Part shown: positions 7,282-36,729 of the stretch, piece after piece
How the letters are laid out: each line of letters opens with the position of its first letter
How positions within the stretch are numbered: the stretch's first letter is position 1
DNA from: Clostridiaceae bacterium
Lineage (GTDB): Bacteria; Bacillota; Clostridia; Clostridiales; Clostridiaceae
Assembly: GCA_040797845.1 (NCBI GenBank)
Contig: JBFNFA010000002.1
Location: forward strand, 9,809 to 73,808
Direction: 5' to 3'
DNA: 64,000 nucleotides
Program-made: the position numbers and the translations under genes
Notes under the pieces: generated by a model
The model's database searches: none
Told to the model about the DNA's origin: nothing
Seen by the model: the letters and a program-made list of their open reading frames with translations, nothing else

Positions 7282-7336
7282 GGGACGGGTCGTGAAAAAT
7301 AGGCATTAATTATGCCTATTTTTCATGACCCGTCCC
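7282..7336. repeat. Inverted pair of REP-like cores forming a long hairpin between convergent genes
   Basis: GGGACGGGTCGTGAAAAATAGGCA pairs with TGCCTATTTTTCATGACCCGTCCC across a short AT loop; starts 4 nt after the LTA synthase stop. Confidence 0.85.
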
Positions 7337-14400: not shown

Positions 14401-14562
14401 TCAGGGACGGGTCATGAATTTTCACTAACTATTTAATTATTATTTTGCTCATTTATTTAATTTACTCACTTATATTTTATTGATTTTTTATTAGTTTTCA
14501 TGTCAATTTTCATGACCCGTCCCTGAAATATACTTATATATTCATGACCCGTCCCTGAATAT
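14401..14562. repeat. Cluster of three REP-like copies in the clpB upstream region
   Basis: TCAGGGACGGGTCATGAA (14401-14418) and its exact reverse complement at 14509-14526 and 14541-14558. Confidence 0.9.
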
Positions 14563-21316: not shown

Positions 21317-21402
21317 GGGGACAGTTCACTCATTTTTAACTAAGTTCAATAAAATAAACAGAGAAAAAACAGGGGATTTGAATGAACCGTCCCCTGTTTT
21401 TT
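21317..21402. repeat. Two REP-like cores; the second sits in a bidirectional terminator-like hairpin
   Basis: GGGGACAGTTCA (21317-21328); AAAAAACAGGGGA...TGAACCGTCCCCTGTTTTTT (about 21364-21402) between convergent ftsH and rhomboid. Confidence 0.8.
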
Positions 21403-22573: not shown

Positions 22574-22589
22574 TTCATGACCCGTCCCC
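22574..22589. repeat. Single REP-like copy
   Basis: TTCATGACCCGTCCCC followed by AACTTC, the same flank as the copy at 33389-33410. Confidence 0.8.
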
Positions 22590-25844: not shown

Positions 25845-25865
25845 GACAAACCTCCATATGTAAGT

Positions 25866-27186
25866 TAGGGACGGTTCACACCAATTCCCTATTTTTTATC
25901 CTTTATATTTTACCACTTTTAATATATTGTTTAAATATATTCATTATGTCTATAATTATTAATGTCAATTTAAAATAAAATATACTTTAAATAAATAGAA
26001 AGGATGAAATAATTTGCCTAGAATTCCTAGAGTAAAGGTAGATAATGGAATATACCATGTTATAATGCGTGGACCTAAGGAAATAAATCTATTTAGAACT
26101 AAAAATGATAAGGATAAATTCCTTACTATATTAAGAAAATATAAAAATATATTCTTATTCGACGTACTTGCTTACTGTTTAATGGATACTCATATTCATC
26201 TATTGATTGATCCTAAAAATGCCGATATTAGTATGTTTATGAAATCAATTAATCAAAGTTATGCTCAATATTACAATAGAATATATGATAGATGTGGTCA
26301 TGTATTCATCGACAGATTTAAAAGTTTTGTAGCTTTAAAAGAAGAACAGATAGTTTCAATGTCAGCATATATACATAATAACCCTAAAGACATAAAAGGG
26401 TACAATAAGAGTGTTGAAAACTATGGCTATTCTAGCTTTGGAATATATATTGGCAAAACTAAGGATGAACACCAAATTATTAACTGCAGATTTTTATTAA
26501 ATTATTATTGTAAAGACCCAATTCAAGCTGCACAGCAATATTACTCCTATGTTAAAAATAGATGTACCGATAGAGATCAGTATATTCAAGATATCCTTGT
26601 AAATTTAAATGATAAGCTAAATTTAAAGTACAATTTATCTAACGATATCTCTTGTTATTATAGTGGAATAAAACCTCTGATTAAAGATATAACACCTGAA
26701 GAAGTTCTCAATTTCTTTTTTAAAGAATGCAACTTAGACAATACTCTCTTTAATATTAAATACAATAGAAAAATATCTAACTATAGAGCAATTATTGTTT
26801 TAGTACTGAGATCTTTTTGCAACTATACCTTTCAACAAATTTCTAATATAATAAATAATTTCACCCATTCATCTTTATCGCGGTTATGTACTAAGGGATA
26901 TTTCCTCATATCAAATGACAAATATTATAAAAATATAATAGATACCTTCTTAGAAAAATATTCTATTAATTATGATTATAAATATAGTTAATTTTTAAGA
27001 TTATGTTGTCAAAATATATACAAATAAATCATTATTGTACAACCTATAAAAATCTATAAAAACTATAAATATAAAATAAAGTTAAACTATTGGAGCATAA
27101 TAAAAAACAACTCATAAATTAAACTTGATTAGTCTAATTTATAAGCTGTCATTTATTAACTTTTTATAATTTATGAACCGTCCCTA
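25866..27186 (+). mobile_element. RAYT-REP module: HUH Y1 transposase gene bounded by a perfect 13-bp inverted repeat
   Basis: TAGGGACGGTTCA (25866-25878) and TGAACCGTCCCTA (27174-27186) flank the Y1 transposase gene. Confidence 0.75.
26014..26991 (+). CDS. REP-associated tyrosine transposase (RAYT, Y1_Tnp/HUH) with C-terminal helical DnaA_C-like domain
   Basis: MPRIPR, YHVIMRG, AYCLMDTHIHLL (HUH), YAQYYN, GHVF.DRFKS, YIHNNP (catalytic Tyr), YSS; extra ~120-aa C-terminal region. Confidence 0.9.
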   Translation: MPRIPRVKVDNGIYHVIMRGPKEINLFRTKNDKDKFLTILRKYKNIFLFDVLAYCLMDTHIHLLIDPKNADISMFMKSINQSYAQYYNRIYDRCGHVFIDRFKSFVALKEEQIVSMSAYIHNNPKDIKGYNKSVENYGYSSFGIYIGKTKDEHQIINCRFLLNYYCKDPIQAAQQYYSYVKNRCTDRDQYIQDILVNLNDKLNLKYNLSNDISCYYSGIKPLIKDITPEEVLNFFFKECNLDNTLFNIKYNRKISNYRAIIVLVLRSFCNYTFQQISNIINNFTHSSLSRLCTKGYFLISNDKYYKNIIDTFLEKYSINYDYKYS

Positions 27187-27190
27187 ATTC

Positions 27191-28033
27191 TTAATTAGCA
27201 GTAAACGTTACTTTACAAGCTGATAACTCAAATTCTTCCTCTTGTAACAAATCCTTTTTGAATACTAAACTTAGAACTCTTGCCTTATTTCCATTAACTT
27301 CAAAATCTTCTAACTCAAAGGATCCTGAGAGAATTGTTTTTCCCTCTGCAGTCGATATAGTTACTGGAAGTTTTTCTAATTTTACAGACTTATTAACTCC
27401 ATTTCTAACTATTAAAGTCATCAATAAATCATCATTTTGATATTGTGTTATAGTAAATACTGAAACACTAACTTGATTACGTTCTAATTTAGGCAAAGTT
27501 TTTATAAACTCTCTAAAAGTATTCGCTTCCTTCTCATCTAATCCTTCTGGAAGTTCTTCCAATTCAACATTTACATAGCTTACAGCTTTAATATTATCAT
27601 CAAAAACAATTTTCCAATCGTCTTGTGAGATTTCATCTACAGATACATTTTTCTTATCAAAATATATCTTCCAAGGTCTAGCTGAATAAGAAGGTATATC
27701 TCCCATTGCATTTAAATCAAAGATTTGATATGCCAATTGCTCTCCCTTAGAATTAACTATACAAAGAGGAACTTTATCTAAGTTTATTGCCTTTTTTAGA
27801 CCATTTACTATGTATATTTTTGCTTCAAATTTATCTCCATCATCAAAAATGTATACACCTGATACATTAACCTGTCCATCTTCTATTTGAGGTATTACTT
27901 CATTCATTTCATCTTCAAGATAATTTTTTTGAACATCAGATATCTTATCAAGAGTATCTTGATTTAATGAAAGCTGGATTTTTAATGGATCCATCTTGTT
28001 CATTTTTTGTGACCCGTCCCCATTATTACTCAT
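27191..28033 (-). CDS. SLAP-domain protein (S-layer assembly type, two repeats)
   Basis: Two similar halves (NGLKKAINLDKVPL..LA...FDL / NGVNKSVKLEKLPV..IL...FEL), YSARPW; GGAGG SD at ATG 28033. Confidence 0.75.
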   Translation of the reverse strand: MSNNGDGSQKMNKMDPLKIQLSLNQDTLDKISDVQKNYLEDEMNEVIPQIEDGQVNVSGVYIFDDGDKFEAKIYIVNGLKKAINLDKVPLCIVNSKGEQLAYQIFDLNAMGDIPSYSARPWKIYFDKKNVSVDEISQDDWKIVFDDNIKAVSYVNVELEELPEGLDEKEANTFREFIKTLPKLERNQVSVSVFTITQYQNDDLLMTLIVRNGVNKSVKLEKLPVTISTAEGKTILSGSFELEDFEVNGNKARVLSLVFKKDLLQEEEFELSACKVTFTAN

Positions 28034-29269: not shown

Positions 29270-29998
29270 TTAGTATGAAGTAATATTTAGCGGTACATCG
29301 TAAGAATTATTTGATATATTTAATGTTGTTCTGCCTATTATTCTAGCTCCATCAATGCCATAAAAATATATCTGAACACTTGTCTTATCATTAATTACAT
29401 TTAATGATGGTTCACCTATATCAAATAAATGGTCATTTCCTTCTACCTTATACTTTCTTATATCATTTCTAGTAGTAGCTGTTATATTTATCGCCTTAAA
29501 AATATCCAATACTGGTGATACTTCTACCCTTGCCATAGCTGTATTCTCGCTTTGAATAGAAAATCTCATAATATTGTCTTTAGTTAAAAACTTTCCATCT
29601 TTTCCTTGAGCACCTTTTCTAACAGTTATTTGATATGTCTGTCCTTTTTTATAGCCACCTTTTGGCGGAATTATTTTTACAGACATATTATCATTTTGCT
29701 CAATACCTACTGGAACAGAACTACCTAAAATATTGTTATTAACTTCGTTTACTTGAATTCTATCTTTTACAGAATAAAATTCTACCGATGAATTAAATTT
29801 AATAGTCCAAACTTTATTCGTATCTGTTGTAGCTTTATTAAGCACCTCTTTTACTGTCTCTTCGTTGTTCGCTGCATAAACTACTCCTGATTTTTTATTT
29901 ATTAATCCATTAGGTAAATTAATCTGAACCGTCCCTAATATTAATACGAATAAAAATAAGACAAGTTTTTTATATTTCATATTTTTTTTCAAATTCAT
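29270..29998 (-). CDS. Secreted Ig-like domain protein (SbsA/Big_5-like)
   Basis: Signal peptide; NKVWTIKFNSSV, IIPPKGGYKKGQTYQITV. Confidence 0.75.
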   Translation of the reverse strand: MNLKKNMKYKKLVLFLFVLILGTVQINLPNGLINKKSGVVYAANNEETVKEVLNKATTDTNKVWTIKFNSSVEFYSVKDRIQVNEVNNNILGSSVPVGIEQNDNMSVKIIPPKGGYKKGQTYQITVRKGAQGKDGKFLTKDNIMRFSIQSENTAMARVEVSPVLDIFKAINITATTRNDIRKYKVEGNDHLFDIGEPSLNVINDKTSVQIYFYGIDGARIIGRTTLNISNNSYDVPLNITSY

Positions 29999-30021: not shown

Positions 30022-30141
30022 AATTAACAGAAGGAAAGTTCGCGAACTGTCCCTGACTTTTCTAAACTTTCCTCTGTTAATTCTTCAATTAATTATCACA
30101 AATTCATGAACCGTCCCTAAATTTACATGAACCGTCCCTGA
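30022..30141. repeat. REP-like cluster with an enclosing 18-19-bp hairpin
   Basis: Cores at 30044-30056, 30103-30118, 30126-30141; arms 30022-30040 and 30065-30082 enclose the first core. Confidence 0.85.
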
Positions 30142-33300: not shown

Positions 33301-33404
33301 TTCACGAACTGTCCCTGATTTCTCCCTAATCTTTTTAAACTTTTTTAAAAGACGGTTCATGATTCTTACCACAGACTTTTTATCAATTTTCATGAACCGT
33401 CCCC
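33301..33404. repeat. REP-like cluster between surface-protein genes
   Basis: TTCACGAACTGTCCCTGA (33301-33318), GACGGTTCATGA (33351-33362), TTCATGAACCGTCCCC (33389-33404). Confidence 0.85.
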
Positions 33405-35293: not shown

Positions 35294-35865
35294 TAAACAT
35301 CACCTTTTGATTATTTTATATTACATTAATTATCGTTTAATAATTTAAAAAATTAATAAATTATTGCTCTTTTTTTGAAATTATAACCTTTTATTCTACA
35401 TTTATAAACCTATTTTAACCTAAATTACCATGTAAGTAAAATTAATCTACAAATTATCTTAATTTTTTATTGATATTATGTTATATTAATTATATAATTT
35501 AAATTATAATAATATTAAATTTTTTTTAATACTTTTATTTAGACATTATTTTTTTACAATATATAACAAGAGGTGATATTTTGTGCAACAATTAAGCCCC
35601 ATTGAAGCAAGAAAGAAACATATAAAAAAATTAACTTGGACATTATCAATTCTTGCAGTAATCTTCGTAGTAGGTATAACAATGTTAATATCTTATATTT
35701 AAAAGAATCCACAGAAGGGTTCTTTTTATTTATTTGTTTATTTATGTAGATCAATGGGAATCCAAATCTCTAATTATTTAATATTAAAAGGGTTTTATGG
35801 AATTTCATAGAATAATTTATTCTAGATATACATTTAGAAAGAATACTTTAGAGAGGATGAATTAT

Positions 35866-36729
35866 ATGAGAGTAAAAAAAGCAGTAATACCTGCAGCAGG
35901 CTTAGGAACCAGATTTTTACCTGCTACTAAAGCGCAACCAAAGGAAATGCTTCCTATCGTTGATAAACCAACAATACAGTACATAATTGAAGAAGCTGTA
36001 GCTTCAGGCATTGAGGAAATCCTTATAATCACAGGAAGAAATAAACGCGCTATTGAAGACCATTTTGATAAATCCGTGGAGTTAGAAAAAGAATTAGAAG
36101 ATCATAATAAAGAAGAATTATTGTCCATGGTTAAAGATATATCTAATATGGTTAATATATATTACATAAGACAAAAGGAGCCAAGAGGTTTAGGCCATGC
36201 TATAAGTTGTGCTAAAACCTTCGTTGGTGATGAGCCCTTTGCAGTTATGCTAGGTGATGACATAGTAGACAGTACCACTCCTTGCTTAAAGCAACTAATC
36301 GATTGTTATGACGAATATAAAACTACAATACTTGGAGTGCAAGAAGTTCCTCAAGAAGACGTTTCTAAATACGGAATAGTCAAAGGATTACATATAGAAG
36401 ATAGAGTTCACAAAGTTAAGGATTTAGTTGAAAAGCCAAATATGGAAGAAGCTCCATCCAGCATTGCTATACTTGGGAGATACATAATAACTCCAAAAAT
36501 ATTTAATATATTAGAAAATACAAAACCAGGTAAAAACGGGGAAATCCAACTTACAGATGCTCTTAAAACTTTAATAAAAGACGAAGCTATGTATGCATAT
36601 ATATTTGAAGGCAAAAGATATGATGTAGGAGATAAATTAGGTTTTTTACAAGCTACTGTAGAATTCGCTTTAAAAAGAGAAGATTTAAGAGATGGCTTTA
36701 TGAATTATTTAACTCAAGTCATTAAATAA
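35866..36729 (+). CDS. galU: UTP--glucose-1-phosphate uridylyltransferase
   Basis: KAVIPAAGLGTRFLPATKAQPKEML, GLGHA, LGDD, VEKP, GEIQLTD; start at 35866. Confidence 0.96.
   Translation: MRVKKAVIPAAGLGTRFLPATKAQPKEMLPIVDKPTIQYIIEEAVASGIEEILIITGRNKRAIEDHFDKSVELEKELEDHNKEELLSMVKDISNMVNIYYIRQKEPRGLGHAISCAKTFVGDEPFAVMLGDDIVDSTTPCLKQLIDCYDEYKTTILGVQEVPQEDVSKYGIVKGLHIEDRVHKVKDLVEKPNMEEAPSSIAILGRYIITPKIFNILENTKPGKNGEIQLTDALKTLIKDEAMYAYIFEGKRYDVGDKLGFLQATVEFALKREDLRDGFMNYLTQVIK

Follow-up and report, generated by a model that had tools for sequence, protein, structure and literature searches.

What kind of element is the gene at positions 26014-26991 of the window analysed here (64,000 nucleotides of contig JBFNFA010000002.1 from a Clostridiaceae bacterium, GenBank assembly GCA_040797845.1), and why does the motif of its flanking repeats crowd into the surrounding DNA? 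An earlier note, made from the sequence alone, had described it as a REP-associated tyrosine transposase (RAYT) gene bracketed by its own repetitive extragenic palindrome (REP)-like repeat. Our follow-up favours another answer: positions 25865-27187 probably represent a single-copy TIRYT-type element ("TIRtron") in which a DnaA-like domain would read the end motif and a Y1 nuclease domain would nick and rejoin DNA at GGGAC, multiplying the motif over a short range.

The copies of the motif are confined to the neighbourhood of the gene. The window has a G+C content of 29% and belongs to an assembly of 4.06 Mb in 33 contigs without N. Within it, the core GGGACGGKTCA occurs 15 times when up to one mismatch is allowed, against 0.13 expected, and none of 100 shuffles reaches 15. 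The strict core GGGACGG[GT]TCA is found 13 times in the genome, each time inside the window. A looser pattern, GGGAC[AG]G[GT]TC[AG], has 18 matches in the genome, 17 of which lie at 7282-33403 of the window (about 26 kb) and the remaining one on contig C17. Under uniform placement, the probability of finding 17 of 18 copies within 0.64% of the genome is below 1e-30 by our own arithmetic. That the inverted repeat and the local cores are products of chance or base composition is suggested by the short length of the motif only, and set against these counts and the replication of the pattern around homologues in at least six other genomes (see below) it has a vanishingly small likelihood.

The core copies follow the extended consensus GGGACGGKTCATGAAWWT and occur alone, in tandem (21 or 32 nt apart) or as inverted doublets giving palindromes of 55-120 nt. 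Of the 17 cores, 15 are located between genes and two at the first codons of ORFs (open reading frames). The part of the earlier interpretation in which the gene is flanked by inverted copies of a motif multiplied in intergenic DNA is supported. Thirteen of the 17 lie on the G-rich (-) strand, which is the lagging-strand template and the coding strand of most local genes; a bias toward the lagging-strand template is also known for IS608. Apart from the two copies that flank the gene, the cores are distributed as follows (G001, G002 and G003 are relatives of the genome studied here):

7282-7336 (7282-7292 on +, 7326-7336 on -): inverted doublet forming a 55-nt hairpin, with convergent genes on either side; conserved in G003 and G001
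14404-14555 (14404-14414 on +, 14513-14523 on -, 14545-14555 on -): three cores upstream of clpB, the last being a 32-nt unit absent from G003 and G001
21318-21393 (21318-21328 on +, 21383-21393 on -): inverted doublet in the ftsH/rhomboid spacer; kept in G002, which lacks the gene
22578-22588 (-): solo core in the rhomboid/HD spacer
28010-28020 (-): core in the 5' coding end of ORF 27191-28033, encoding GDGS; the G002 orthologue has the same length and reads GAGACGGTTCG
29925-29935 (-): core in the N-terminal coding part of ORF 29270-29998, which is of equal length in four species
30043-30138 (-): three direct cores (30043-30053, 30107-30117 and 30128-30138), the last two spaced by 21 nt; G003 lacks the 21-nt unit
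33305-33403 (-): two direct cores (33305-33315 and 33393-33403) in the DUF5050/CWB2 spacer

In the spacer of about 365 nt upstream of clpB, pairing of the + copy at 14404 is possible with each of the two - copies; in G003 and G001 this spacer has one - copy only, and in G002 none.

Comparable swarms surround other members of the family. A second paralogue in the same genome (C15:42037-42948) is 35% identical to the first, and each motif variant is represented by one gene copy in this genome. This paralogue is preceded by two copies of its own variant, GGGACAGTTAT, exact copies of which are located on the 63-kb contig C15 in 16 of 21 cases. The pattern GGGACAGT[TC]AT has 29 copies, 22 on C15 and three on C19; the variant can be summarized as GGGACAGTYAT, and its local copies span C15:19.7-62.5 kb. 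The sister species G002 carries a single family gene (C1:798396-799304) bracketed by a third variant, GGGACRGTTAA, for which 15 of 18 copies are found in C1:794-849 kb.

Homologues of 35-57% identity sit inside swarms in at least five other genomes. Around a homologue of 57% identity, G012 has 11 of its 12 cores in C68:13.3-31.1 kb. Two swarms are present in G019 (C2:452-561 kb and C2:906-934 kb), each with a gene copy (486468-487334 and 932608-933501, respectively). In G037, a member of another family, C3:95-133 kb contains 57 of the 63 cores as well as the gene (118324-119223). G035 and G023 have a similar swarm pattern on several contigs. Conversely, eight genomes without a family match contain 0-2 cores each, not above a reversed-pattern control. 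The swarms in G019, G023, G035 and G037 have no genes in common with the window except for a GalU-like gene in G037. Because these gene neighbourhoods are unrelated, confinement is a property of the gene-motif pair and not of one chromosomal region.

The ORF of the gene starts with TTG downstream of an AGGA ribosome-binding site, and the N-terminus of the protein, MPRIPRVK, fits the consensus MPRxARxK of the homologue alignment. Its features, all on the + strand, are:

26014-26991: gene for a Y1/HUH nuclease with a DnaA domain IV-like domain (325 aa), a candidate TIRYT / TnpA-Y1 subclass 2.1.2 member
26038-26382: Y1_Tnp catalytic domain (residues 9-123, Pfam E 2e-13)
26191-26199: HUH motif H60-I61-H62, within MDTHIHLLI
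26368-26370: catalytic Tyr119, within SAYIHNNP
26596-26652: low-confidence interdomain linker (residues 195-213; predicted local distance difference test, pLDDT, below 50 in AlphaFold)
26686-26973: predicted C-terminal helical domain, DnaA domain IV-like (about residues 225-320; family profile and Foldseek)

H60, H62 and Tyr119 do not vary among the 35 homologues aligned, confirming the earlier assignment to the Y1/HUH enzymes with HUH and Tyr intact. Judged by profiles and predicted structure, the enzyme is RAYT-like and not IS200-like, again as first proposed. The NCBIfam model REP_Tyr_transpos gives 47.9 bits, under its equivalog cut-off of 80, and transpos_IS200 gives 13.5 bits, under its cut-off of 55. 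An AlphaFold model computed from the 35 sequences (mean pLDDT 84.8) consists of two domains and the low-confidence linker. The top Foldseek match is the E. coli TnpA-REP bound to a REP hairpin (4er8_A; template modelling (TM) score 0.73, root-mean-square deviation (rmsd) 2.8 Å), followed by the IS608 and ISDra2 TnpA structures (TM 0.54-0.65).

With the latter two the enzyme shares the catalytic fold and presumably single-strand DNA chemistry. These structural matches, along with the Pfam domain name "Transposase IS200 like", are what could be said for an ordinary copy of an IS200/IS605 insertion sequence. We regard such a copy as exceedingly improbable given the low IS200 score, the one gene copy per motif variant in the genome and the additional C-terminal region of 130 aa, which is predicted to bind DNA. 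Furthermore, the ends are terminal inverted repeats instead of the differing subterminal hairpins with guide sequences of that family, and neither the ORF list nor the neighbours of the gene (the manganese-efflux gene MntP and a DUF7076-like gene) include a tnpB-like ORF at this locus; the absence of both tnpB and IS200-type ends had been noted before.

The second domain was previously described as an extra helical domain of about 120 aa that could read the motif, and both profile and model agree with a C-terminal DNA-binding domain of this kind. In Foldseek, it superposes on the DnaA domain IV/DnaA-box structure 1j1v_A with a TM score of 0.79 and an rmsd of 2.0 Å over 92 columns. The proposed profile search yielded a clear Y1_Tnp match, whereas the single-sequence match to Bac_DnaA_C is weak (E 0.009) and below the Pfam cut-off. 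The family profile matches DnaA chains of the PDB (2hcb/1l8q, E 3e-4; 1j1v, E 8e-4), with profile positions 212-306 aligned to DnaA residues 219-314. Because this match (E 3e-4) extends over the whole domain, we consider the extra domain to be real and, as far as profiles and models can tell, DnaA domain IV-like.

The element is delimited by two copies of the motif:

25865-25878 (+): left terminal inverted repeat, TTAGGGACGGTTCA, with the core GGGACGGTTCA at 25868-25878
27174-27187 (-): right terminal inverted repeat, TGAACCGTCCCTAA on the + strand, complement of TTAGGGACGGTTCA

As reported by a repeat finder, the inverted repeat is perfect and flanks the gene as first noted but measures 14 bp instead of 13, the ORF being 135 nt from its left copy and 182 nt from its right one. 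On direct reading, the repeat unit is not itself self-complementary, and the core GGGACGGKTCA has no GTAG, its only internal palindrome being TCATGA. The flanking copies read AGGGACGG, matching six of the eight positions of the published end motif GGGGWSAS, and further copies, in the swarm and in paralogues, read GGGGACAG, matching all eight.

That the motif marks the ends of an element is best seen in G036, which has about 33 matches to the family. The copies that we fetched share a common unit of about 1.23 kb with roughly 90% identity. The homology of the unit has its left limit exactly at GGGACATATAAGT and its right limit exactly at ACTTATATGTCCC, the outer G of GGGAC being the boundary, and additional tandem copies of the end motif often adjoin the unit ends. 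Since the shared homology stops at GGGAC, the motif marks the element ends. These alignments indicate present or past mobility of the entire repeat-gene-repeat unit in G036.

The label "domesticated" used in the earlier note finds no support here, as the family has such multicopy relatives. The classic RAYT-REP system, in which a domesticated, single-copy RAYT spreads palindromic REPs genome-wide, would account for the RAYT-like fold, the higher profile score for RAYT than for IS200, the inverted motif copies on both sides of the gene and the hairpin-capable inverted doublets in intergenic DNA. Nevertheless, it is distinctly improbable here. Dispersal is lacking, with 17 of 18 copies within 26 kb; no stem tagged with GTAG or CGTC is present in the basic unit, which is not self-palindromic; the RAYT score remains below its cut-off; the family is multicopy in some genomes; and the DnaA-like domain points to subclass 2.1.2 of the TnpA-Y1 enzymes, for which no REPs have been reported. 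The proposed REP system with dispersed repeats is thus replaced by one of the terminal-inverted-repeat type.

Comparison between species points to DNA processing at one edge of the motif. The orthologues in G003 and G001 are 89% and 84% identical, respectively, with 16-17 cores at matching intergenic places. Copy differences between species consist of whole motif-bearing units of 21, 32 or 44 nt that were gained or lost, and of short indels at the side of the motif. Between G000 and G003, four indel openings fall in the 157 nt that make up the 12-nt zones outside GGGAC, against a background of 26 in 4583 nt (p 0.017), and one falls in 178 nt on the inner (TCA) side. Between G000 and G001, the corresponding figures are nine in 157 nt against 44 in 4583 nt (p 6e-5), and three in 178 nt. 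The enrichment outside the GGGAC end is therefore 4.5-6-fold, with none on the inner side, and the indel-prone outer edge is where the element homology ends in G036. Tandem duplications of 6-12 nt are often found just outside the GGGAC end in G019. A related strain in the sludge metagenome run X2 has an 11-nt insertion, TTACATAATTT, directly outside the right repeat (behind 27190). The outer-edge indels, the insertion and the duplications together point to DNA processing at the outer edge of the motif. Among the assembled contigs of runs X2 and X3, no junction relevant to excision products or empty sites was found; the related strains there keep the gene.

In the TIRYT-type scheme, the C-terminal domain, a helix-turn-helix domain attached through a flexible linker, would recognize GGGACGGKTCA(TGAA), and the outer, GGGAC-side boundary is where the Y1 domain would nick and rejoin DNA. 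In the course of evolution, the end motif would have been multiplied, giving copies that stand alone, motif units of 21, 32 or 44 nt in tandem, and inverted doublets that form hairpins of 43-76 nt and are comparable to REPINs. This multiplication would be almost confined to tens of kilobases around the gene, suggesting that the enzyme works in cis, or else that single-stranded DNA of the same replication fork is its target. We infer the motif-binding domain, the nick position, the single-strand intermediates and the cause of the short range from the patterns described above.

Copies inside genes are a particular case. On C15, 11 of 24 paralogue-2 copies are inside long ORFs; given that 82% of the contig is ORF sequence, copies are nevertheless overrepresented in intergenic DNA. 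The genes concerned include argH, RNR, SbcC, an FdrA-like gene and a dipeptidase. The argH copy encodes E-GQLL and is shared by the four species of the genus; the site has as many codons as in six other genera, which lack the motif. Similarly, the coding copies at 28010 and 29925 of the window differ from G002 by substitutions only. In the M19 dipeptidase (C15:33145-34095), the motif encodes GDSH, where most homologues have G[DE][NST]x at equal length. Two dipeptidase homologues (P0120 and P0123, from G001 and another relative) have in-frame tandem expansions, SGDSHIS-GDNHVNN and GDSYMTL-GDSHATD, and from these alignments the unit-addition process appears to act inside the dipeptidase coding sequence too.

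Several observations weigh against the TIRYT-type scheme as we have drawn it. In-gene copies without length change are not accounted for by simple insertion; they may come from conversion of similar proto-sites or from selection for sites. Three species have most motif positions in common; turnover is therefore slow and activity today unproven. Substitution in the motif is 7.9% versus 6.0%, and 11.9% versus 12.9%, in other intergenic DNA. Finally, swarms outlast loss or decay of the gene, and copies therefore need no enzyme to persist: the paralogue-2 swarm remains in G003, where the gene has one stop codon (27 of 34 copies in C1:1127650-1188427), in G001, where the gene is degraded (20 copies on C25), and in G002, where no gene was found (15 copies on C6). 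The expectation that core abundance tracks the gene is accordingly half right, in that genomes without a family member have 0-2 cores but the tracking is loose where a gene has been lost or has decayed. The swarms are therefore older than the split of the four species and decay slowly once the gene is lost.

Loss of the gene of the window itself can be followed in G002. At L022:15730-15946, orthologous to 25845-27190 of the window, local alignments show that the ORF was lost with an internal deletion of about 1.09 kb, while synteny from clpB to the CWB2 genes is intact around it. The 217-bp MntP-DUF7076 spacer that remains is made of three pieces, namely what is left of the left end in degenerate form (GGGACGGTTTG), some 90 nt from the 5' leader and a trailer part of about 140 nt of 3' non-coding sequence that includes the degenerate right end CGAACCGTTTC. 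G002 has 4-6 local cores, variant or degenerate, versus 16-17 in its sisters. The remnant looks like a natural non-autonomous derivative, similar to a miniature inverted-repeat transposable element (MITE).

In the main rival reading, the protein would be a domesticated DNA-binding protein whose sites evolved in place by point mutation under selection and serve a local chromosomal or regulatory role, comparable to parS/ParB or DnaA-box clusters. It fits a C-terminal domain resembling DnaA domain IV, site positions shared by three species, sites of unchanged length in conserved coding sequences, and an own site variant and cluster for each paralogue. We nonetheless hold it to be unlikely. A mere binder leaves the invariance of the catalytic HUH and Tyr across the family unexplained, as it does the relatives that are multicopy mobile units ending at the motif, the swarms that outlive their genes and the occurrence of swarms in unrelated neighbourhoods of different genomes. 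The unit duplications and the one-edge indel hot spot point to DNA processing, and the sites display no extra sequence conservation. Purifying selection on the motif was considered as a candidate and rejected, the substitution rates being not below those of other intergenic DNA.

A broader idea, which we advance tentatively and consider doubtful as it stands, is that Y1-DnaA_C enzymes introduce their own motif over the 20-100 kb of chromosome around their genes by a short-range process distinct from classical cut-and-paste or copy-and-paste transposition. Nicks at proto-sites near the gene, followed by templated repair or strand switching, could turn similar sequences into perfect motifs, even in conserved genes and with no change in length. 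Motif units of 21-44 nt would be added in tandem, and every paralogue would establish a territory of its own, marked by a motif variant particular to it.

The TIRYT class itself has been described. Di Nocera, De Gregorio & Rocco (2013; PMC3733652) report TIRYT genes flanked by terminal inverted repeats with GGGGWSAS as the majority type, and some species with moderately abundant repeat families occurring as singles, dimers and groups. On sequence grounds, the element of the window is a clostridial member of this TIRYT/TIRtron class: it has a RAYT-like Y1 protein with HUH and catalytic Tyr, and terminal inverted repeats instead of REP hairpins. The accessible text of that article contains neither Clostridia nor an analysis of copy location, whereas here the tens of kilobases around the gene take in at least 90% of the copies, paralogue variants form separate swarms and some copies are coding. 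The subclass 2.1.2 of TnpA-Y1 enzymes was defined by a C-terminal Bac_DnaA_C/helix-turn-helix domain (Quentin et al., 2018; PMC6006769), and most of subclass 2.1 was equated with the TIRYTs in the same study. Our protein would belong to subclass 2.1.2, an assignment made from architecture only (a Y1 core with the C-terminal extension). It differs in that a repeat family surrounds each gene, while Quentin et al. found no REP-like sequences near subclass 2.1 genes. Both the architecture and the GGGGWSAS-type end motif having been published, the "different core" of the earlier note is not new as a type.

The element is probably also a Group 1 RAYT; Clostridia are among the hosts of this group, in which flanking 16-mers are of low abundance, about 12 per replicon (Bertels et al., 2017; PMC5581495). 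The E. coli TnpA-REP/REPtron and the Pseudomonas RAYT-REPIN systems resemble it in the HUH/Tyr fold, the inverted flanking repeat copies and the hairpin-forming doublets. REPs, however, are self-palindromic, carry a GTAG head, and number in the hundreds genome-wide, none of which is true of the present core, and TnpA-REP has no DnaA-like domain. The closest precedent for local copies comes from a single genome, that of Thauera, where more than one third of the REPs are near the rayt gene and preferential formation of new REPs near that gene was proposed (Nunvar et al., 2010; PMC2817692); here the share is about 90-100% of copies and the pattern is recurrent. In the literature searched, we did not find near-total and recurrent confinement, paralogue-specific variants, a polarity of indel hot spots or in-gene copies.

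RAYT-type enzymes are thought to create REP and REPIN families but, to our knowledge, the origin of new copies has never been shown. The gene and its swarm form a compact system for studying how such enzymes make new repeat copies, with three natural specificity variants two to three bases apart, a mapped candidate processing edge at GGGAC and natural gene-loss derivatives. Private, paralogue-specific swarms within tens of kilobases recur in several clostridial families, which bears on the cause of the short-range action and on the target of the DnaA-like domain. For annotation, GC-rich 11-mers that recur in clostridial intergenic regions, leaders and N-terminal coding parts near such genes are element-derived.

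The genes of the swarm region encode an LTA-synthase-like sulfatase, an MCP, an EAL protein, ClpB, two HTH-TPR regulators, RNase H (rnhA), FtsH, a rhomboid protease, an HD protein, Fur, MntP and CWB2 surface proteins. We ruled out a genomic island, as these are ordinary chromosomal genes in conserved synteny across four species. GC skew is negative on the + strand throughout the 577-kb contig; because it keeps a single sign, the swarm region is not at the origin or terminus. A fork-trap or centromere-like reading based on position was rejected, as there is no GC-skew switch near the swarm. Rfam gave no match at the gathering threshold in window positions 5000-36000, and promoter and terminator counts around the gene were not above those of shuffled sequences.

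Two further observations concern swarms in other genomes. The GalU-like nucleotidyl transferase of the window (35797-36729), which adjoins the swarm, has 81% protein identity to its counterpart in G037 (L029:19564-19998), at the swarm edge, which may reflect high conservation or shared context. In the arrays of L053-L056 (G019) and L028-L029 (G037), each core is followed about 20-30 nt downstream by another conserved box, GGACAAGC, and the upper stems of the G019 doublets differ from each other yet are self-complementary.

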